DNA from: Patescibacteria group bacterium
GTDB taxonomy: Bacteria > Patescibacteriota > Minisyncoccia > Phycocordibacterales > UBA9973
DNA length: 64,000 nt
Reading direction: 5' to 3'
Assembly: GCA_040390725.1 (NCBI GenBank)
Contig: JAZJXT010000003.1
Coordinates: 34,502 to 98,501, forward strand
Shown here: piece by piece, positions 6,838-41,474 of the stretch
How the letters are laid out: each line of letters opens with the position of its first letter
Position numbering within the stretch: the stretch's first letter is position 1
Translations under genes and position numbers: made by a program
Notes under the pieces: model-generated
What the model was told of the DNA's origin: nothing
Databases searched by the model: none
What the model saw: only the letters and a program-made list of their open reading frames with translations

Positions 6838-9800
6838 TTGTCACACAAAAAAACATACTCTTTAGACAAAAAAGCATTTTTATGCCAGTATATAGGTATG
6901 GAAAGAATATATAAACCAGTTACACAACCGCCTATTGTCCCTAAAAAGAAAGCGGATGTTGTTTCTAATAAAAAAGAAAAATCTGTTAAAAAGAAGGATA
7001 ATATAGAACTGTCAGTTGTCTCTAATCTTAAAAAAATATTAAACTCTCAGATAAGCCCAACTGCTGCGCAAATTTTTGTGTTTGAAAATGTGCATACAAA
7101 AGAAGAATTTGAAAGTGTGTTAAATTATCTTGTAAAAAATGCATCTGATAAAAAATTAGAACCCTACATAGGTAAACTTATAGATGCTATTGGTCAAAAT
7201 GGACAAAGGGTTAGCCCAGAAGTTTGGATTGAAAATATGTCGGACCTTTTTTCAGTCGCAGGTGTTTCCGGAAACATAAAAGATTCTGCGCTTTCTGCTA
7301 CTAATTATATAATGTCATTTTATGAAGGGCATATTCCTGAAATTTTAAAAAAAGCAACCCTTGAAGACATTTCTGATTATAACAAAACAGGTAAATTGAT
7401 TAAGTTTCTTTTTTACTTAGGCAGGGAAGCCAAAGGTCAGGGGTTTTCAGAAAAACTTTCTGAAAGTATAAAAGAAACCTTAGGTAAAATAGCAGAGCCG
7501 AAATTGGAAAAAAATTATTTATTAACAAAATTCGCTGGTGGTGCCTTAGAGGGGTTAGAAAACAAACACAATCCAAATGCTTCTGGCACACTTTGGTTTG
7601 CCATCCAAAAAGATCAATATGGGGCTGTGTATGAGGATGGATTTTTGCACATTAGTGATGCTGGAACAAAAAATGACATTGACTCTAAAACAGAAAAAAT
7701 TCATGAAATGTTTAAAATAAAGATGTCGTCTGAAGACGGGGAAAGATTGTCTGAGATAGAAAAAGAACTTGCAGAAATTAAAGAAGAGCTGTTCCCATCA
7801 AATAAAAAGATAATTACTGAAATTAATGAAAAAAATAATAAACTTATTAAAAAAATAAATGAACTTCATGATGAAAATGTAGAAATTTTTAAACGCAATA
7901 ATCCTGATTTTCGTGCCTTAGACAGAGAAAGGGTAAAAAGGGTTATTGAAATTGAAGATATTGTTTCAAAAAATACAATAACACCAAAAGTACTTATTGA
8001 TATGGTCCCTGGAGTAAGTCCTGAAGAAGTTAAAAAATTATATCCAGATTACTTGTTTATGTTGGATGGCATCATGAGACCAATTTTGGAAACAGACTTT
8101 CAAAAAGATATTTTTACACTTTCAATACCAGAGCAATTATATTTTTTAAATTACTTGAAAACAATAAATAATAAACAAGCTGAACAGATGAAGAATTTCT
8201 GTAAAACTAATGGCTTAAATGGTCTTCGAACATTTCTTTCAATTGCCCATGGTGGAAAGGAAATGGGAGACAAGATTATAACTATAGGGGAAAGGTTGCC
8301 GGAAGAATTGGCGGAAAAGGTTTTTCAAATTTACAGCGAACATGTGGAAAAAGTTGCAGTGGTGGCTGGAAAGGTTTTTTCTGATTTAAAACAGGAATTT
8401 CCAAATTTATTAATAGATGAAGATACTATTACTCAATCATTGTTGGTTCGCGCAAAAGATTTTTTGGTTGAGCTTGAAGCGGAATTGCAATCCAATCCGG
8501 AAGGAATAAAAAGTTTTGTTAATAAATTTATTACTGAAATTAAAAAAGAGTCACCTCAAGAGCAGGTGGTGCGAGCTCAATTTAAGACGATTGCAAATTT
8601 GTTAAATCATGAAAATGTTGATCTTAAAAATTTTGAAAACAATCAGGATTTGATTTTACATTCATTGGGCACGGGTGAGCAGAAAGCTTTGATGTTTAGG
8701 GCATTAAACAGGATGAATCGGTTGAGCCCTGTGCCTGAAATACATTGGCGAGTCGATCGTTCCAGTGAAGAATATGACAGACGTTTAGGAATAAATGTAA
8801 ATAAATTTTTACAAGAAAGGTCAGGCATTTTAGGCAGAAAACAGATTTTATTGGAAATTGGTCCTGGGAGTGGGGTTGCAAAATCAGGCAGGACAGACCT
8901 GGGCCTTTCTGAAAATTATCAAGACATAGCTCTTTCAGATAAAATTTATTATCCCTTGTCTTCAGTAGTTGAAAAACTTATTGATTACTCTGAATTAGAA
9001 AAAATAATGGGTAAGGAGTCAGGTTCGAACGATAATCTTCCACTTTCAGCAGAAGAAAAAAGCCAATTGGCGGATTTTATTTATAAAACAATAGTTATTA
9101 AGCAAGGAGAAACTTCATTCGATACTTTCACATACGACGAGCAAAACCAAATGAATTTAACTGAAGATATAAATAATTTAAAAAATATTTTAGGTGAACA
9201 GCTTGGTCAAAGATTAAAATCGGCAAAAGAAGTCCCCGACACTGTCAGCATGCATCGCGACGGCAAGGTTGTTTACCCGAATAAAATAAAAGTCGAATCA
9301 TGGTCGCCAAAATTACAAATGGCAAAAAAATTACTTGAAGAAAACCCAACAAACTTCTTGAGATCAGATTGGGAGCAAGTTGATTATTACGATTTGATCG
9401 AAGCTTTTCCTGCGAATGTTATGGTCGGGGACTTGGATCAAATTTCTCAATTGCGTTCAGACCAAGTCGATGTGGAATTGGCCGTCAGGTCCACTGTGTA
9501 TAAAAAGGGAGAAGATTATGTTCAATTCTTAGGGCAATTATTTAATACTCTGAGCGAAGGCGGTGTGGCCATAGATGACAGCATCAGGGACAATGACGGT
9601 TGGTATTATCGCATAGCGGAAGTTTTAGAGGCGCAAGAAAAATTTGGAGATAATAATGAAGTTTTAGTTATATTAGGCCCAGGTTTTCAAGGTGAAGACA
9701 AAAGGCAAGACAAAGTGCCTTTATCATTAGTCATTACAAAGAAAGGTAGTTCTATAGAATTGATAAAAAAGAATTTATTACCGGGGTATGAAATAGTTAG

Positions 9801-9897
9801 TCTTGAAAATTTATCTGGTGATCAAGATTATTTATTGACCTTAGATGATACAGGGTTAACAAAAAAGAAAGTAAATCAATCAGCTTTGGCAGCGTAA
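6838..9897 (+). CDS. Large (about 1000 aa) hypothetical protein: Lys/Glu-rich coiled-coil N-terminal half, C-terminal region with a SAM-methyltransferase-like GxGxG motif
   Basis: Uninterrupted 1019-codon ORF; …GRKQILLEIGPGSGVAKSG… resembles MTase motif I; no other recognisable family; alternative start at 6898 (MERIYKP). Confidence 0.5.
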   Translation: MSHKKTYSLDKKAFLCQYIGMERIYKPVTQPPIVPKKKADVVSNKKEKSVKKKDNIELSVVSNLKKILNSQISPTAAQIFVFENVHTKEEFESVLNYLVKNASDKKLEPYIGKLIDAIGQNGQRVSPEVWIENMSDLFSVAGVSGNIKDSALSATNYIMSFYEGHIPEILKKATLEDISDYNKTGKLIKFLFYLGREAKGQGFSEKLSESIKETLGKIAEPKLEKNYLLTKFAGGALEGLENKHNPNASGTLWFAIQKDQYGAVYEDGFLHISDAGTKNDIDSKTEKIHEMFKIKMSSEDGERLSEIEKELAEIKEELFPSNKKIITEINEKNNKLIKKINELHDENVEIFKRNNPDFRALDRERVKRVIEIEDIVSKNTITPKVLIDMVPGVSPEEVKKLYPDYLFMLDGIMRPILETDFQKDIFTLSIPEQLYFLNYLKTINNKQAEQMKNFCKTNGLNGLRTFLSIAHGGKEMGDKIITIGERLPEELAEKVFQIYSEHVEKVAVVAGKVFSDLKQEFPNLLIDEDTITQSLLVRAKDFLVELEAELQSNPEGIKSFVNKFITEIKKESPQEQVVRAQFKTIANLLNHENVDLKNFENNQDLILHSLGTGEQKALMFRALNRMNRLSPVPEIHWRVDRSSEEYDRRLGINVNKFLQERSGILGRKQILLEIGPGSGVAKSGRTDLGLSENYQDIALSDKIYYPLSSVVEKLIDYSELEKIMGKESGSNDNLPLSAEEKSQLADFIYKTIVIKQGETSFDTFTYDEQNQMNLTEDINNLKNILGEQLGQRLKSAKEVPDTVSMHRDGKVVYPNKIKVESWSPKLQMAKKLLEENPTNFLRSDWEQVDYYDLIEAFPANVMVGDLDQISQLRSDQVDVELAVRSTVYKKGEDYVQFLGQLFNTLSEGGVAIDDSIRDNDGWYYRIAEVLEAQEKFGDNNEVLVILGPGFQGEDKRQDKVPLSLVITKKGSSIELIKKNLLPGYEIVSLENLSGDQDYLLTLDDTGLTKKKVNQSALAA

Positions 9898-10673
9898 CTT
9901 TCTTTTGAGGAATTATTTTTTTCCAATTCCCAAATTAAGTTGAAAAGTTTTTCAAAGTTTTTTGCTATCTCTTGGTTGTCAATCAAGATACCTACAGCAT
10001 TATTTTTCTGAAATGTAATAATTGAAGTTAGTTGCTCGGTGATTTTTATATCCATACTGAAAGGGAAGATAGAATTTTGGAAAAATTTCGTTTCTCGCAG
10101 TTCTGATTCGGAATTGATGTTGATTTTATTGTCTGCCGGGGCGATAACCCTGTTTTTTATATTTAATTTTATTCTTTTCTTAATAAATTGCGGAAAGTAT
10201 TCAGGAATAAAAGATGCCATTTCCCCGCCATCTTCAAAACTGTCTATAAATTTACTTTTACTATTTAGGATTTGTTCGTATATATTTATAATACCTTCTT
10301 TACCCTCAAAAAATCTGACATTTGGTTTGCCTACTATTAAATTGTATTTAGAGGAAAGTGCACCGATGCCCGCGCCGACTATTTCTTTGGCGAGGTCTAG
10401 ATTCTTTTTATCCCTATCCATTTTATCTAACAATATAGAAGGGTGGGCGGGGTAGAATACCGCCACCGTGCCGGTACCGCCCTTTTTCTCTACTAAACCC
10501 ATATTTTCCAGCTGTTCTAGTATTTTATAAACCAAACCTCTTTTTATACCCGTCCAAGTTGAAAGCGGGCTGGCTTTTTGAGGGCCTTTATCCAGTAGGG
10601 ATTCATACACGATTGCTTGTTCTTCTGAAAGCCCCGCTTGTTTTAAAATATTTTCTTGATTTATATCTGTCAT
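9876..10673 (-). CDS. TrmB-family transcriptional regulator
   Basis: N-terminal winged HTH …AGLSEEQAIVYESLLDKGPQKASPLSTWTGIKRGLVYKILEQLENMGLVEKK… matches TrmB HTH; C-terminal effector domain. Confidence 0.75.
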   Translation of the reverse strand: MTDINQENILKQAGLSEEQAIVYESLLDKGPQKASPLSTWTGIKRGLVYKILEQLENMGLVEKKGGTGTVAVFYPAHPSILLDKMDRDKKNLDLAKEIVGAGIGALSSKYNLIVGKPNVRFFEGKEGIINIYEQILNSKSKFIDSFEDGGEMASFIPEYFPQFIKKRIKLNIKNRVIAPADNKININSESELRETKFFQNSIFPFSMDIKITEQLTSIITFQKNNAVGILIDNQEIAKNFEKLFNLIWELEKNNSSKESYAAKAD

Positions 10674-10786: not shown

Positions 10787-10815
10787 TTGACATTTCTAAA
10801 CTAAAATGCTATACT
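10787..10815 (+). promoter_or_regulatory. Near-consensus sigma70-type promoter
   Basis: TTGACA-17 nt (…aaatgc)-TATACT; the same aatgcTAtACT architecture recurs at 17749 and 22353. Confidence 0.7.
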
Positions 10816-10819
10816 ATCC

Positions 10820-11215
10820 TCAGAAGGTTCGTTAAGGAGATTTCAGAAGATTGATGCCCACCTCTGATCCTGAGCATTGTTTCAACAAAGCACAGGACGG
10901 TACCTAAGCCGGTAAGTTAGGAAAGAGGAGAGAGTGAGCTGAGAGACAATCCTTTGAAATCTGTTTGCACCGCGGATTGCATAAATTGATATTGAGGCCG
11001 CAAACCCCAAATCAATGAAGCAACAAAGTCCGCAACCGTGTATACATCACTGCAAAGTGGTGAAGACATAGGCAGGTCGGAAGAGTCTAACCCTCTCTTG
11101 TGATCTGAAATGTCTTTATGAAGGAGCTGAATGTTTGAGGAGAAATATTCGGAGCACAAAGAGGAGAGAGACTTGCTTTGTGATAAAGATAAATTCATTG
11201 ACAACAAAATATTCT
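10820..11215 (+). ncRNA. Candidate non-coding RNA or long structured leader
   Basis: About 400 nt of GC-rich sequence after a consensus promoter with no ORF longer than 27 codons on this strand; internal direct repeat AAGAGGAGAGAG (about 10919 and 11160) and complementary CCCTCTCTT (about 11092). Confidence 0.35.
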
Positions 11216-11383
11216 GAAAGCGATTTCTTTTTTCTTAGTTGAATTAAAGAAATGGTATTTAGATATGCCTTATGAAGAAATTCGTGAGGGGAATATAAGT
11301 TTTTTCTTTTAACTTTTCTTTTTTGAGAGATATTTGTATATAAAATATTATATGTAAGTACCTCTCACAATAAAGAGAGTTAC

Positions 11384-11563
11384 ATGACAGATCAAAAAAT
11401 TTTAGCTCTGCGCGCGGCAGGGATAAATGTTATCGGGAAGATAGTTCTTCCTGGTGATAAAAAAACCGCCACCAAGAAGGTGGCAAAAAAACATTTTAAA
11501 CCTTTTTTCGGTGGTTATACCATCGGAGAAGTTTTGAAAGCTCAGGGTATCTCTTTGGGATAA
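11384..11563 (+). CDS. Small basic protein, 59 aa (below ORF-track cutoff), hypothetical
   Basis: Hand translation: MTDQKILALRAAGINVIGKIVLPGDKKTATKKVAKKHFKPFFGGYTIGEVLKAQGISLG*; purine-rich aaagagag 8 nt upstream; followed by an AGGGTTAA-hairpin module. Confidence 0.4.
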   Translation: MTDQKILALRAAGINVIGKIVLPGDKKTATKKVAKKHFKPFFGGYTIGEVLKAQGISLG

Positions 11564-11782
11564 GCTGAGTAAAAGTGTGAGTATCACTTTCAAAAAACTG
11601 CTCACTAGGGGTTAGGGTTAAAAACTAAAATGCTGAATTATTACAATTCAGCACCTTATTCAGTTCATTATTTTAAATGGTGGATTGATAGGGAAACATT
11701 TTCGTTCCTTTTTCATTCTTGCGGGATATTTTTACATATTAATTTGTGTATGAATACCCCGCAAAAATTTAAACGGGTTAAA

Positions 11783-12157
11783 ATGAATTATTTAGAAATT
11801 ATTGGCTACATTTCGGACATGGCCGGAGCCATTGGTGGAATAGTTTCCGCCATTGGAATTTTTACGCTTTTAGCGCAGAAAAGACGCGAAGAGCAAAATA
11901 TTTCTGTCTTCTTTAGGGTGATTGAAGAAGACCGGAATATTTTATTGCCCTTCGAACTTGTTCGGAGGGATATTTCCCGAGCTGAAATTCTTGGGAGAAT
12001 GGGCATGTTGCCCATTCAAGAAAAATCAGGAAGATTTTCTATTCGAGGGCTACTGTCTTCGGAGTTTTTAAAAAATCTAAATGAAATTCGCGAGGGTAAA
12101 ACCTCGGTTCTTCATATTTCTATCACCCAAAAGGAATTGGAGCAGTTTGTGCTTTGA
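11783..12157 (+). CDS. Hypothetical protein: N-terminal TM helix plus about 90-aa soluble domain (ORFan)
   Basis: MNYLEIIGYISDMAGAIGGIVSAIGIFTLLAQKRR… hydrophobic helix then charged domain; GC about 45% versus about 30% in flanks; conserved leader module upstream. Confidence 0.5.
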   Translation: MNYLEIIGYISDMAGAIGGIVSAIGIFTLLAQKRREEQNISVFFRVIEEDRNILLPFELVRRDISRAEILGRMGMLPIQEKSGRFSIRGLLSSEFLKNLNEIREGKTSVLHISITQKELEQFVL

Positions 12158-12247
12158 TTCTTTTTGAAAGGGTTACTGTTAGACCTAAAAAACAGCGCAG
12201 AACCTGTAGGGCGTAACACGAAAGGAGATTTTTTTAACCATTCAAAA

Positions 12248-12553
12248 ATGGCAAAAAAAATTATTGACTTGTCTTTAACGACAGAAAATCCTTTGTATAA
12301 AGGATGCTCTGTAGAAGAGGTTGCAGGTCGTCAAACTTTAACCACTCCCTTGGAGGAGGCGGTGAATATTGTGGGCAGAAATGCTGATGCAATAGTCAAA
12401 GCCGACACCGAGAGAGACGAGGTAGTTCTGACTGGCCCTATGGCTATTTGGAGCTACCTTATAGTATTTCACGCGGTCGTTCATGCTTACCGTCGTGTTT
12501 ACTATAGTGACGGTAGAGGAGGTAAAGACCTTCTCATCGCTGCTCACGGTTAG
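12248..12553 (+). CDS. Hypothetical protein, about 100 aa (ORFan)
   Basis: MAKKIIDLSLTTENPLYKGCSVEEVAGRQ…VVLTGPMAIWSYLIVFHAVVHAYRRVYYSDGRGG…; likely cotranscribed with 11783-12157. Confidence 0.45.
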   Translation: MAKKIIDLSLTTENPLYKGCSVEEVAGRQTLTTPLEEAVNIVGRNADAIVKADTERDEVVLTGPMAIWSYLIVFHAVVHAYRRVYYSDGRGGKDLLIAAHG

Positions 12554-12638
12554 GAAAAGACAAAACGAGGGAGCAGGCATGCGTTAAAACCTCAAATGAA
12601 AGTTGTACTGATACATGCGACAAAGATGCAAAGTATTA

Positions 12639-12763
12639 AGGGTTAATTTTGGAGGACGAAGGTTAAAAACTTTCGCGCCTCCTCTTTATTCAGATTTTTA
12701 CGCTTTAAGCGTAGAAGTTTGATAGGGAGACTTATTTTTTGTCTTTGTGGGATATTTGTACAT
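12639..12763 (+). repeat. Intergenic module copy A: AGGGTTAA, hairpin, TCTTTATTCAG, TTGATAGGGAGA, GGGATATTTGTACAT
   Basis: Shares ordered blocks with copies at 11611-11737, 14770-14870 and 15464-15565; hairpin ggaggacgaaggttaaaaactttcgcgcctcc followed by a T-rich tract. Confidence 0.6.
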
Positions 12764-12816
12764 TATGTAAATTGTATTTATTTTGTGTGTAAGTATCCCT
12801 TAAAGACGGGAATTAG

Positions 12817-13614
12817 ATGAATCCAGAAAAGTTTAAAGACCTCGTTCAAAAAGCGAGGATACTCTATCCTGACAACAGGGTGGAGGAAAGCGGGGATACT
12901 AACCCCGCGCCATATGTTTTTCTTACAGAGGAGGACAAAAAGGCGGGACCCACCGCTGTGGCAAAAAAATATAAAATGACGAAAGGGGTCGCGTATCGCG
13001 CTCTGAGTAGTTACGGATTTTTCCGTCCGTGGTATTTAAACACCAAAGAGGAAAAAAAACGTACTCCGGCTCACCATCGGAGAAATCAGGTATTCATGCC
13101 TAGTCAATGGGCAATGGAGAATCCTGAGATAATAATTAAGGCAGCTCGCCAGGCTGCCCAAAGAGAGCTTCGTTCTCGTTTTGGCTCGTTTCGTTTTACT
13201 CATGATGAATTTCAAGATATCGTGAGTGAGACAATAGTTCGCATGTATGCGAACTCGAGCAAGTGGGATCGGAGCAAGTATAGTTCCGATTTTGCGATGG
13301 CGTTGTTCGGTGGTTTTAGACATGTACGATCTGCAATAAATTTCGTACTGTTCAGAAAGGCTGAACAGCAAATCCCTTTTTCTACTTTCCTTGGAGCGGA
13401 AGGCGGTGAAGAAAAATGGTCGGCGCTTGAAGACGAAGCGTCGCTTGATGCCCAATCTCTTTTGGAGACAAAGGAGATTTTGAAAAATGTTGAACAAGCT
13501 ATTGTTGCCACTTACGGCCCAAAAACTTGGACAAAAATTTGGAGATGGGCAAACTCCAACAGGGTAAACATGCCGGAGGAGTATCGCAAGATACTAGAGA
13601 CATGTTTAAACTGA
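12817..13614 (+). CDS. Hypothetical protein, 265 aa (ORFan); weak resemblance to sigma-70 region 2
   Basis: Segment EFQDIVSETIVRMYANSSKWDRSKYSSDFAMALFGGFRHVRSAINFVLFRK loosely follows the sigma r2.1-2.4 pattern (DLVQETFLKAW…FSTWLYRIARN); no clear region-4 HTH. Confidence 0.45.
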   Translation: MNPEKFKDLVQKARILYPDNRVEESGDTNPAPYVFLTEEDKKAGPTAVAKKYKMTKGVAYRALSSYGFFRPWYLNTKEEKKRTPAHHRRNQVFMPSQWAMENPEIIIKAARQAAQRELRSRFGSFRFTHDEFQDIVSETIVRMYANSSKWDRSKYSSDFAMALFGGFRHVRSAINFVLFRKAEQQIPFSTFLGAEGGEEKWSALEDEASLDAQSLLETKEILKNVEQAIVATYGPKTWTKIWRWANSNRVNMPEEYRKILETCLN

Positions 13615-14309
13615 AAACAATTTTGCCTTTATCCGCTCCAGGAGTGAATAAGGTAAAACTCTCTGCCAAGGAGGGTGCTGTATATCAGCGAATACTTGGA
13701 CTTGCTCAGAAAGCGTGTATGCGCGCGCTTTTAAGTAAAGACATAGACGGCGCGTATTTCAATGCTGTCTATTTAGAGGATCGCTGTTTCCAGATTAAGG
13801 TGAAGCCGAAAATTGGGCTGAAGTTTAATCTGAACATATATTTGTTTCAGTTTTTTTCTTGCTGGTCGGACAACAATGTCGCCAACAGGGCTGAAGTGAA
13901 TATAAAAAACGATGACGAGGAGGAAGAAATTCTTCGCGTTCTCGTTGAAGCGATCAGAGCCAAAACGACTTCTTTCCGCGCGGGCTTTATGGCGGAAGAA
14001 GTTGTTGGAAATATGCTGGCGGACATGGCTGGTAAAAAAATGATTATCAAATACAAAAAATCTTTCCAGTTGGAAGATTTGGCGGGAGTTGATTTTTATT
14101 TTTCCGTTTTGGACTTTTTGGGATTTGTGGTTGAAATTCCACTACAAGTAAAAAGTTCAGTGGGGGGTCAAGCAAGGCATGAAAAAAAGCATGCTGACAT
14201 TCCCTCGCTCGTAGTCCGTCCTGAAACTTCCGAAGAAGAGTTGCAGGAAAAAATCATGAAAATTGCCGGCGCATATTCGGCAAAATTCAAAAAGGTTCTT
14301 CATGTTTAA
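13602..14309 (+). CDS. Hypothetical protein, 236 aa (ORFan)
   Basis: Start ATGTTTAAACTGA overlaps the upstream stop by 13 nt, suggesting translational coupling; track ORF starts at 13527. Confidence 0.45.
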   Translation: MFKLKTILPLSAPGVNKVKLSAKEGAVYQRILGLAQKACMRALLSKDIDGAYFNAVYLEDRCFQIKVKPKIGLKFNLNIYLFQFFSCWSDNNVANRAEVNIKNDDEEEEILRVLVEAIRAKTTSFRAGFMAEEVVGNMLADMAGKKMIIKYKKSFQLEDLAGVDFYFSVLDFLGFVVEIPLQVKSSVGGQARHEKKHADIPSLVVRPETSEEELQEKIMKIAGAYSAKFKKVLHV

Positions 14310-14340
14310 TTTGTTTTTGTTCACTTAAATTTTTTTCATT

Positions 14341-14706
14341 ATGGCAGTTATCACCGCAAAAAAACTTACGGATTTTTTTATTCGTAAGTCAGACAAAGGG
14401 GAGGTCCTCTTTGCTGATGGACAAACCGGCATGCGTTGTCGGCTCGGATTGTGCATTCGCACAATTTGGGAAAGTCCCAACGGGTTTGTTCCACAACCCG
14501 AGAAACATATTTTTGCAGTCAGTAGTGGAAGACTGGCTGACTTCGGAGTGGCATATGTCACATCTGAAACCCGTTCCATTGATCCGGACTTGCCAGGCAA
14601 GCCGGTAATGGTGGATTTTCTTGAAATTGGTGGTGTGTTTTATTACACCATTATTTTTGAGAAAAAAGAGCGACCACGGGCGCTCGAAAAAAGAAACTGG
14701 AATTAA
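14341..14706 (+). CDS. Hypothetical protein, 121 aa (ORFan)
   Basis: Intact ORF with island-type GC; followed by module copy B. Confidence 0.4.
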   Translation: MAVITAKKLTDFFIRKSDKGEVLFADGQTGMRCRLGLCIRTIWESPNGFVPQPEKHIFAVSSGRLADFGVAYVTSETRSIDPDLPGKPVMVDFLEIGGVFYYTIIFEKKERPRALEKRNWN

Positions 14707-14769
14707 TTCAGTTTTTTTTGCAATAGCTCTTGCCTATGAAGGTCGGCTTTGCCAGCAAGAATGTATCCT

Positions 14770-14870
14770 AGGGTTAATTTATTTGGGAGGAGTGGAATTG
14801 AACTTCACTCCTCCTCTTTATTCAGATTTTCAATTTTTAAATATTTTAAATTGGAAGTTTGATAGGGAGA
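14770..14870 (+). repeat. Intergenic module copy B: AGGGTTAA, hairpin, TCTTTATTCAG, TTGATAGGGAGA
   Basis: agggttaattta…gggaggagtggaattgaacttcactcctcctc-tttattcagatttt…ggaagtttgatagggagatg; identical block order to copy A. Confidence 0.6.
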
Positions 14871-14945
14871 TGCCGAAACCCAAAGAAAAAGTAGGAGAAT
14901 TAAAAACTTATTAAGTCCCCCGATGTCGTAAGGGGGCAGAAAAAA

Positions 14946-15464
14946 ATGGAATTTCTTGAAAAAGAAAAACCCCAACACGGTATCTCTTCTGGAGAAACTG
15001 TGTTCGGGTATTTTGCCCCTGACAAAACTTTACAAAAAGTTACGGGGTCAAAATTCGCCGAAATTTTGAAAAACTCTTCTTGGAAGAGTCAAGCCGGATA
15101 TTTCGGTGATGTCGATGAAGGGAACTGGGTCTCTTCCAAAAATAAGGAGGAAGTAACTCAACAGGTTCTTTCTGCGTGGAAAGAACTTGTTGGGGATAAA
15201 TACCCACATCCAAATGGGTATTGCTTATCCCTAGAAAAAGCCGTTAAGGTTTTAAAAGGGACCCCCGTCATTTATGAGGGGGAGGATAATTTTTTCATTT
15301 CCGGTAAGCCATATTATGGGCAGGGGAAGTGGAAATATTATAAAAACCTGAAAATGGAGGATATTTTTTGTCTCCCATTTAATGGGTATTACCCGGAGAA
15401 ATTATTTTTTTCGAGAGAAGAAATTCTCTCTGTCTGCAACACAAATTTGCAGTTTCCGGGGTAG
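14946..15464 (+). CDS. Hypothetical protein, 172 aa (ORFan, Gly/Tyr/Lys-rich)
   Basis: Intact ORF; small hairpin gtcccccgatgtcgtaagggggc just upstream of the ATG. Confidence 0.4.
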   Translation: MEFLEKEKPQHGISSGETVFGYFAPDKTLQKVTGSKFAEILKNSSWKSQAGYFGDVDEGNWVSSKNKEEVTQQVLSAWKELVGDKYPHPNGYCLSLEKAVKVLKGTPVIYEGEDNFFISGKPYYGQGKWKYYKNLKMEDIFCLPFNGYYPEKLFFSREEILSVCNTNLQFPG

Positions 15465-15478
15465 GGGTTAATATTTCA

Positions 15479-15515
15479 GAAAGGTTTGATAATTTCAAAC
15501 CTTTCTAACTTTTTC
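15479..15515 (+). terminator. Rho-independent terminator ending the island's last gene
   Basis: gaaaggtttgataatttcaaacctttc hairpin then taactttttcagttt; preceded by AGGGGTTAA overlapping the stop codon. Confidence 0.6.
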
Positions 15516-15722
15516 AGTTTATTATTTAACAGCTTACAAGCTTGTTGAATAGTGGATTGATAGGGCCCAGAAATTTTAAAAAAGTTTTTTAAAATTTCTG
15601 GGCGGGAAAAGCCCGGTTCAAAATTAAAATAACGTGCTGTTCTTTCTCGTCTCACAACAGAAAGAACAGCAAAAATCTCTCTCCTCTCGTTATTTGTTTT
15701 TTGAGCCGGACTTTTCTTTAGA

Positions 15723-41310: not shown

Positions 41311-41474
41311 AGATGTATTATATTAGATTTATGAAAAATATCGCTCTTGACAAATTTATGTATTTATATAGACTTATAAATGAATTTCCAGCTTATATAT
41401 TATATTATGCTGGAGCTCAAAAGGAGTTAGCTGAAAATCCTTTAAAGAGTAAGCATGTTCATTAATTTATCGTT

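Follow-up and report, generated by a model that had tools for sequence, protein, structure and literature searches.

The DNA analysed here is a 64,000-nucleotide (nt) stretch of a Patescibacteria genome (contig JAZJXT010000003.1, positions 34,502 to 98,501; hereafter the window). Its + strand carries an array of four small gene cassettes, and each cassette, the last one included, is followed by a copy of one intergenic module, as is also the case in the related loci L123 and L126. The module is a previously undescribed, strand-specific RNA element of two hairpins, hairpin 1 (hp1) and hairpin 2 (hp2), preceded by a single-stranded box (box 1). The array, together with the regulator gene and the noncoding leader RNA (ncRNA) at its head, is laid out in Table 1. 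L-numbers (L122–L149) denote the related loci that were compared with the window.

Table 1. Features of the cassette array in the window, with one hairpin variant from related loci (ORF, open reading frame; aa, amino acids; UTR, untranslated region).
Feature	Position	Strand	Remarks
Large ORFan protein, 1019 aa	6838–9897	+	converges on and overlaps the TrmB-like gene
TrmB/TrmBL2-like winged-helix DNA-binding protein	9876–10673	−	divergent from the array
Leader-RNA promoter, TTGACA-17-TATACT with TG	10787–10815	+	near-consensus sigma-70, 11/12 positions
Leader ncRNA, ~400 nt	10822–11215	+	3' domain 11062–11215; no Rfam match
Mini-hp2 (CCUUAU GAA GAAA UUC GUGAGG)	11268–11289	+	degenerate, at array head; conserved in L139
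Leader hairpin, promoter-like, L0	11318–11383	+	before first gene; TTGAGA-17-TATTAT, 10/12; fold z = −3.95
Cassette 1, 59-aa ORF	11384–11563	+	no family
Module 1	11606–11693	+	box 1 11606–11621, hp1 11631–11653, hp2 11654–11693; 74.7 bits
Leader hairpin L1	11719–11782	+	z = −3.85
Cassette 2a, Csx23-like membrane protein (cA4-binding effector family)	11783–12157	+	PADLOC, PDB 8qjk
Cassette 2b, Csx3-like protein (ring-nuclease family)	12248–12553	+	PADLOC
Module 2	12636–12728	+	box 1 12636–12646, hp1 12651–12682, hp2 12683–12728; 63.8 bits
Leader hairpin L2	12740–12816	+	z = −6.79
Cassette 3, three near-ORFans (265 aa, ~234 aa, 121 aa)	12817–14706	+	
Module 3	14768–14869	+	box 1 14768–14777, hp1 14785–14815, hp2 14816–14869; 70.6 bits
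DUF805b-like 5'-UTR hairpin, sub-threshold, fused to module 3 end	14863–14897	+	RF02914, 20.8 bits
Cassette 4, 172-aa ORF	14946–15464	+	stop codon TAG inside box 1 of module 4
Module 4	15462–15565	+	box 1 15462–15471, hp1 15478–15506, hp2 ~15509–15565; 61.7 bits
Perfect 19-bp palindrome ending the array	15565–15603	.	faces convergent CNNM gene
hp1 variant with apical loop (G)GCGAUAAUUUCAAA, related loci	L123 3925–4033; L127 1619–1711; L133 459–561 and 2375–2472; L148 6907–7005		

Architecture and distribution of the module

From its 5' end, the module begins with box 1, in which the unpaired unit GGGUUA stands once or twice; a short spacer of A and U leads on to hp1 and then to hp2. In letters, the order in each copy is TAGGG(G)TTAA, a copy-specific hairpin, YTTWTTCAG, 21–39 nt and (G)RWTTGATAGGG, with AGGGTTAA upstream of three copies and GGGGTTAA instead in copy 4. 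From the composition given in an earlier reading made from the letters alone (the sequence-only reading), copy 4 departs slightly, in GGGGTTAA and in having CTTTTTCAG rather than TTATTCAG. That reading was right to place a terminator-like hairpin first, and the hairpin that it called perfect is so in copies 1 and 4 and imperfect in the others. The distance from TTGATAGGG to the next ATG, given there as about 90–100 nt, is 90, 90 and 79 nt for the first three copies, and beyond module 4 there are only a palindromic terminator and a convergent gene, with no downstream gene on the + strand. Since the last module has no gene to lead into, the module is a 3' or intergenic element of the cassette and not primarily a 5' leader, as had been proposed.

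The two-hairpin fold is alike for every one of 41 copies folded with RNAfold. The GC-rich hp1 (mean 10.3 base pairs (bp), 4.9 of them GC) differs in sequence from copy to copy and has loops of 3–17 nt; hp2 has a mean of 20.8 bp with 4.1 G-U pairs, and in 36 of 39 copies the two hairpins abut with a gap of 0 nt. At its base, hp2 has a conserved sequence, with YCUUAU, a bulged U and CAG paired with UUG-AUAGGR, and its tip varies freely. TTATTCAG is the 5' strand of the hp2 base and TTGATAGGG the 3' strand (CCUUAU:AUAGGG, one U bulged, CAG:UUG), the spacing between these boxes ranging from 19 to 69 nt among copies. Of the options left by the sequence-only reading, that of a structured RNA is the one that gained support, the boxes being the two strands of a single covarying helix.

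In a 21-sequence alignment, 97.6% of the cells are paired over the 18 pairs of hp2, against 41–58% with slid 3' partners, and eight pairs are changed on both sides (40 cells). The covariation score of hp2 is 0.429 versus 0.177 for shuffled alignments, and none of 500 shuffles reached 0.429. Four genomes show a joint change of TTATTCAG/TTGATAGG to TTATTGAA/TTCATAGG, in which boxes 2 and 3 switch together from UCAG/UUGA to UGAA/UUCA, and divergent copies retain the helix with other letters (CGUUAU/AUUGCG, UCCC/GGGA, UCCAU/AUGGA). Wobble pairs are fixed as well: U-G occurs in 21 of 21 sequences, and G-U or U-G in 17 of 21 at three further positions. In 40 of 41 copies, RNA of the sense strand folds more stably than that of the antisense strand (summed −1455 versus −916 kcal/mol; Wilcoxon p = 2.6e-8), which indicates that the module works as RNA; we regard a structure at the RNA level on the gene strand as highly probable. 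Covariation, fixed wobbles and sense-strand stability are the signature of selection on gene-strand RNA and not that of a promoter or operator.

Within the window, TTGATAGGG occurs exactly four times, always on the + strand and within 3.9 kb (11685, 12719, 14859, 15557). A covariance model of the module, built from 21 copies and run on both strands, matches 11607–11699, 12638–12733, 14769–14873 and 15463–15571 (62–75 bits, E 1e-10 to 2e-13) and nothing else in the 64 kb at E ≤ 1 on either strand, so the four-copy module reported earlier is real. It is not the private motif of two to four copies that it had seemed to be, as 41 modules were counted across 18 Patescibacteria loci. A three-box scan with one genome per species gave 15 loci. 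Six of them are Patescibacteria (Paceibacterota, Minisyncoccia, Nomurabacteria and one labelled Saccharibacteria) with the full architecture, often in multiple copies; the RuvB protein of the Saccharibacteria-labelled locus is ~87% identical to that of the window. The nine matches outside Patescibacteria were rejected as chance, scoring 15–23 bits with the module model. Further loci were gathered through the neighbouring leader RNA and through homologs of the neighbouring TrmB-like regulator.

All module matches of at least 29 bits lie on the array (coding) strand and on the array side of the regulator, and the sole exception to the array-side rule is a weak 28-bit match in L147 on the far side of TrmB. 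On viral contigs the two-box pattern TTATTCAG..TTGATAGGG gave 120+ single matches, all at chance level and discarded, and the three-box and subtype-1 patterns gave none. No covariance match to the module or the leader RNA was found in Rfam 15 for the window and 14 related loci, and literature searches returned no prior description of the module, the leader RNA or the array.

Several variants of the module deserve mention. One hp1 variant with an identical apical loop, (G)GCGAUAAUUUCAAA, recurs in different genomes (Table 1), and hp1 of window copy 4 has UUGAUAAUUUCAAA; judged by its sequence, the recurring loop hints at a partner of its own. In one clade (L126 6620–6700 and 7255–7335; L138; L139) the module is ~190 nt long, with two extra conserved 5' hairpins (CUGAC..GUCAG and AGAGG..CCUCU) before box 1. 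A self-cleaving ribozyme was considered and rejected, as there is no Rfam ribozyme match even at E ≤ 5 and the conserved nucleotides lie mainly inside helices.

Array head, leaders and cassettes

The order at the array head was checked wherever a locus extends far enough, and it is the same in the window and in 13 related loci, those in which the leader RNA was identified: a large weakly conserved ORF, the TrmB-like gene, a divergent near-consensus promoter, the ~400-nt ncRNA and the array. The 3' neighbour varies by lineage (ruvB, clpP, topA, pnp). The promoter of the leader RNA is conserved in L123, L126, L137–L142 and L146, and the 3' domain of this RNA folds into three hairpins in which 20 of 44 consensus pairs show compensatory changes among 13 genomes. 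With clear covariation in each, the module and the leader RNA count as two new families of RNA.

In its 9-nt apical loop (11086–11094, UCUAACCCU; consensus YYUAACCCW), the first 3'-domain hairpin carries the reverse complement of box 1, and in most copies 7–9 nt are complementary. Loops ending in U go with an AGGGUUA box and loops ending in A mostly with UGGGUUA; in L143 the loop is AAUAACCCA and the box GGGUUAUU. Complementarity between the loop and box 1 of the same genome is higher than for permuted loops (mean 8.10 versus 7.26, p = 0.013, uncorrected for phylogeny). We treat pairing of the leader-RNA loop with box 1 as a supported hypothesis and not as a result.

Other relations between the two RNAs were tried and set aside. 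Pairing of AUCUGAA of the ncRNA with UUCAGAU of the module was rejected, since GUGAUCUG forms the 3' strand of P2, a helix with good support, and stays constant where the module varies; the purine-rich loops of the ncRNA could pair with the pyrimidine-rich 3' arm of hp1 in copies 2 and 3 and in L142 only, which is not a general fit. For telomerase-like templating of GGGTTA by the UAACCC loop, there is no reverse transcriptase in the locus, and the repeats are just one or two imperfect units. Two observations concern the leader RNA itself: that of L146 (~9400–9480, − strand) has an insertion of ~85 nt with a GC-rich hairpin between AUGUCUUUA and CGAAGGAG, and L149 (756–776; IMGVR_UViG_2893123043_000002), a contig filed as viral, has the leader-RNA core sequence and no module in the 6 kb examined.

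The regulator matches Pfam TrmB (E 1.3e-12) and has 228 homologs, of which all those named by source are Patescibacteria. The best PDB match of its AlphaFold2 (AF2) model (predicted local distance difference test, pLDDT, 86.6) is the archaeal chromatin protein TrmBL2 (E 6e-15), over about the full length but with a low TM-score (about 0.39). That the nearest structure is TrmBL2, a chromatin and silencing protein, and not the sugar-sensing TrmB suggests that this regulator may silence the adjoining acquired array. The large ORFan has no Pfam, PADLOC or PDB match and only 12 homologs, some with a GNAT domain, and a large ORF occupies the corresponding position in every TrmB locus fetched. The ORFan contains a class-I methyltransferase-like motif (LLEIGPGSG), and its overlap with the 3' end of the TrmB-like gene is 22 nt.

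The conserved 5' leader described in the sequence-only reading exists, in three copies and not two: TTGNGRGATATTTKTAYAT... stands at 11323, before the first gene, and at 11719 and 12745. A pattern search found no further copy in the window and none in 14 related loci; these ~100-nt leaders are an element separate from the module and private to this genome. All three fold as long hairpins (z scores in Table 1) whose arms differ by compensatory changes (GAGAG/CUCUC versus GCGGG/CCCGC, L0 relative to L1 among them) and whose 3' arm or basal stem overlaps the purine-rich stretch ahead of the ATG. To judge by their letters, they also resemble sigma-70 promoters, as L0 has a 10/12 match and L2 can be read as TTGTGG-17-TAAATT. 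Another hairpin, CCCCCGAUGUCGUAAGGGGG, lies at 14905–14945, immediately 5' of the start codon of the last cassette gene, with a Shine-Dalgarno-like GGGGG in its 3' arm; like the leader hairpins, it may block access to the ribosome-binding site.

A different 5'-UTR element, the DUF805b RNA (RF02914), is approached by the sequence after copy 3, which scores 20.8 bits against a gathering threshold of 35.6; copies 1, 2 and 4 give no match. DUF805b RNA is a short hairpin of 5'-UTRs, of the Patescibacteria type, and it is fused directly to the 3' end of the module in L122, L133 and L142. Unlike the module, which is itself not matched by RF02914, it is a separate 35-nt unit: it lies ~100 nt downstream of a module in L123 and occurs without any module at 41421–41455 of the window. 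That bona fide copy (+ strand, 40.4 bits) is upstream of a small ORF, far from the array, and the motif inside the L123 array scores 49.2 bits.

As for the cassettes, the protein of cassette 2a matches Csx23 in PADLOC over near full length (E 2.8e-23) and csx23 of PDB 8qjk (E 1.2e-4), and that of cassette 2b matches Csx3 in PADLOC (E 8e-6 and 3e-6) in its C-terminal half only and has a 67% identical homolog in the L136 array. Csx23 is a membrane effector that binds cyclic tetraadenylate (cA4) (PMC11014256), and Csx3 is a ring nuclease (PMC7371418). Apart from these two ancillary proteins of type III CRISPR families, the 64-kb window contains no Cas protein: neither Cas10 nor another cas gene nor a CRISPR array was found, nor a tyrosine recombinase. 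Other arrays encode Mvol_0529-family and DHH/CorA-associated proteins (L142), Unk_01/C3a69 and Csx3 (L144), an E1-E2/ThiF protein (L140) and bpMoxR with a von Willebrand factor A (VWA) protein (L143), and there are RelB/YafQ and HicAB toxin-antitoxin pairs at the distal end. Most cassette proteins are without any match, and searches of Pfam, PHROGs and NCBIfam gave nothing useful for them. One cassette protein, P3, is faintly similar to sigma-70 region 2 (E 0.054 and 0.1); a role as sigma factor was rejected, the matches being faint only and the relatives numbering three among 1.8 billion representatives.

Cassette content changes rapidly between relatives. The ruvB genes of the window and of L133 are ~87% identical, and the two arrays have no cassette in common; L138 has two extra cassettes at its array head compared with L139. 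The cassette common to L138 and L139 starts 2–9 nt downstream of either hp2 or the mini-hp2 located behind the leader RNA (7 nt from the latter in L139), and its homology (~90%) extends through box 1 and ends at hp1. The hp1+hp2 unit therefore marks both edges of the exchange, and cassette boundaries lie at the module. The array is a variable, partly defence-related gene array found in many Patescibacteria. At the far end of the window array, between the terminal palindrome and the stop codon of the convergent CNNM gene, there is an inverted repeat of 29 nt (15606–15634 and 15688–15716, 83% complementary, 53 nt apart).

Proposed role and competing explanations

Judging from sequence and predicted folds, we give about even chances to a role of the module as a punctuation element for termination, processing and stability, possibly coupled to the leader RNA. 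It would act in cis as an RNA co-transcribed with the genes, closing one cassette in an array that runs on a single strand. The hairpin hp1 and the U-rich 5' strand of hp2 would jointly form an intrinsic terminator or attenuator and would also stabilise the 3' end of the upstream cassette mRNA. In read-through transcripts, hp2 would form a double-stranded, sequence-specific recognition site of RNase III size; its 20.8 bp, intergenic and on the sense strand, reach the ~20 bp or more of double-stranded RNA found at RNase III sites. This helix of two turns with a bulged U could be read by a double-strand-specific RNase or by a dedicated protein, and it would separate and insulate neighbouring cassette transcripts and cap the 5' end of the downstream one. 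Box 1 would pair with the leader-RNA loop and so couple each cassette boundary to the transcript of the strong promoter. Incidentally, the repeated modules would supply homology for cassette gain, loss and exchange. We infer termination and processing, the loop pairing and the kind of factor that reads hp2 from the architecture described above.

Several findings weigh against this role. The tail of hp1 is UCUUUAUUC or CCUUAUUC, with no clean U-run, and in a terminator scan hp1 of copies 3 and 4 passes and that of copies 1 and 2 fails. Neither an RNase III gene nor another candidate reader of hp2 was found in the window, and genes for RNase III and RNase Y were seen only in related contigs. The co-variation of loop and box 1 comes from few independent lineages; L137 (loop UUCAACCCG) and two of three L147 boxes are uncompensated, and box 1 is missing altogether from the modules L127b, L147 7395 and L148 6907. 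In addition, the strong sequence conservation of the hp2 base would also fit a site at the DNA level.

Such a site could be a cassette recombination site of the attC kind, acting folded as single-stranded DNA or read as duplex, at which a recombinase would insert and excise cassettes, with mini-hp2 as the counterpart of attI. The single orientation of the array, the fast turnover of cassettes (window and L133; L138 and L139), homology breakpoints exactly at the hp1+hp2 edges, the conserved base, extrahelical base and variable tip of hp2, and toxin-antitoxin pairs at the distal end, as in chromosomal integrons, all agree with it. It is the main rival of the punctuation role, and we nevertheless consider it unlikely, since a tblastn search of the window with three Patescibacteria Xer-like integrases gave no tyrosine recombinase, no Phage_integrase gene adjoins any of 9 arrays, and the Xer-like genes of L142, L143 and L148 lie ~9 kb off among housekeeping genes. 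Inspection of both strands by eye found no RYYYAAC/GTTRRRY core pair and no GTT core at the 3' end; moreover, it is the sense strand that folds better, and the roughly four conserved G-U wobbles would be mismatch-like in DNA and A-C on the other strand. An attC site also has no counterpart of hp1 and box 1. A further reading is an integrase-less, RNA-coupled cassette platform in which the UAACCC loop of the leader would recognise the GGGUUA box closing each cassette. Capture, exchange or individual switching of cassettes, of which many are defence modules, would then take place at the joint of hp1 and hp2, and the platform would be a functional analogue of integron- or CRISPR-style array processing through RNA-RNA or RNA-DNA recognition; we think this improbable. 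The idea of a selfish or neutral repeat (a miniature inverted-repeat transposable element (MITE), or one like the repetitive extragenic palindromic (REP) or enterobacterial repetitive intergenic consensus (ERIC) sequences) that spread between genes with no role in the array draws on the multiple intergenic, hairpin-forming copies of about 100–200 nt, which are more alike within a genome than between genomes. It is very improbable: the copies are confined to one array and one strand with no other in the 64 kb, there are no terminal inverted repeats (the ends are GGGTTAA and ATAGGG) and no target duplications, and the module is kept across genomes whose TrmB proteins are just 41–72% identical, with its hairpins changing by compensation.

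The sequence-only reading had also considered a promoter for another sigma factor, here TTATTCAG...TTGATAGGGA, or a regulator site (for which the TrmB-like protein would be a candidate), with transcription starting just downstream. Although modules lie 79–90 nt 5' of three start codons, a winged helix-turn-helix protein is encoded beside every array, and P3 has its faint sigma-70 similarity, this option found no support and is now very unlikely. The two boxes are base-paired with compensatory changes, and their variable spacing is incompatible with a −35/−10 pair or a dimeric operator; strand-asymmetric G-U pairs are meaningless for the recognition of duplex DNA; no downstream gene follows copy 4 or the final module of other arrays; and the promoter scan did not pick up TTATTCAG...TTGATAGGG. 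Nor can the module be P3's promoter, because P3 is a near-ORFan and many module-carrying genomes lack it. Readings of TTGATA as a −35 element or of TGATAGGGA as an extended −10 element were rejected, there being no partner hexamer at a fixed distance. Equally hard to credit is a reloading site for processive antitermination, through which each cassette boundary would recruit NusB/NusE or else the polymerase-bound leader RNA. In rrn and lambda nut sites boxB comes before boxA, an order mirrored here by a hairpin followed by CUCUUUAUU; the CUCUUUA of copies 2 and 3 is presumably comparable with the E. coli rrn boxA GCUCUUUAACAA, a long leader RNA stands directly behind a strong promoter, and relatives have NusB and NusA genes. 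However, within hp2 the stretch that resembles boxA is base-paired and covaries with the opposite strand, and other copies read CCUUAU, CGUUAU or CCAUUU.

Known systems and biological meaning

The module is akin in kind to known intergenic RNA punctuation and cassette-boundary repeats and belongs to none of them. Early mRNA of phage T7 has intercistronic hairpins for processing by RNase III, and other intergenic hairpins that stabilise mRNA also occur. Such hairpins have about two helical turns, separate genes that are transcribed as one polycistronic unit, keep their shape more than the sequence of their tips and are left at the 3' end of the upstream message, all of which recalls hp2. By contrast, hp2, for which cleavage is only putative, has a base whose sequence is conserved across genomes, and it never stands apart from a terminator-like hairpin and a G-rich box of single-stranded RNA. 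REP sequences with their mosaic forms (bacterial interspersed mosaic elements, BIMEs) and ERIC sequences are likewise short, transcribed, hairpin-forming intergenic repeats able to terminate transcription or stabilise mRNA. They are dispersed genome-wide in both orientations, whereas the module keeps to one strand of one array and goes with one particular leader RNA; dispersal in both orientations with terminal inverted repeats, which marks MITE and REP elements, is not what the module shows.

Integron cassette arrays, including integrase-less clusters of attC sites (CALIN), share with the present array a single orientation of unrelated, mostly ORFan or defence-type cassettes, a structured repeat of ~100 nt at each cassette 3' end, toxin-antitoxin pairs, fast cassette turnover and a strong promoter that heads the array. 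In both kinds of repeat the stem is conserved at its base, has an extrahelical base and varies at its tip. Here, however, IntI and the R''/R' GTTRRRY core are absent, selection acts on the structure of the sense RNA, with conserved G-U pairs, and not on that of the bottom DNA strand, the module has an extra GC-rich hairpin and a GGGUUA box, and the array head is a 400-nt structured RNA with a TrmBL2-like gene in place of intI and attI. An RNA from the array edge that is complementary to a short box at each unit boundary also recalls what we take to be the logic of CRISPR repeats and trans-activating CRISPR RNA (tracrRNA), and the rAID-1 arrays of Bacteroidales presumably offer a parallel in their immunity-type genes separated by conserved intergenic repeats. 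Unlike in CRISPR systems, the units here are whole genes and not spacers, and the complementarity is just 7–9 nt; a search of the window for short repeats, in tandem or spaced, gave no such array. No cas gene or recombinase adjoins the cassette array.

In the tiny, streamlined genomes of Patescibacteria hardly any regulatory RNA has been described, and a single locus here unites a structured RNA of ~400 nt, a multi-copy structured RNA repeat and an array with fast turnover. Some of the identifiable array genes belong to anti-phage or conflict families, namely Csx23, Csx3, DHH/CorA-associated, E1-E2 and MoxR-VWA proteins and toxin-antitoxin pairs. The TrmBL2-like gene with the leader RNA is a simple marker for variable defence islands in uncultured genomes of the candidate phyla radiation (CPR). 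If the module is indeed punctuation, it would show how Patescibacteria express and insulate horizontally acquired cassettes; if it is coupled to the leader or recombinational, it would represent a new design of cassette array without an integron integrase.

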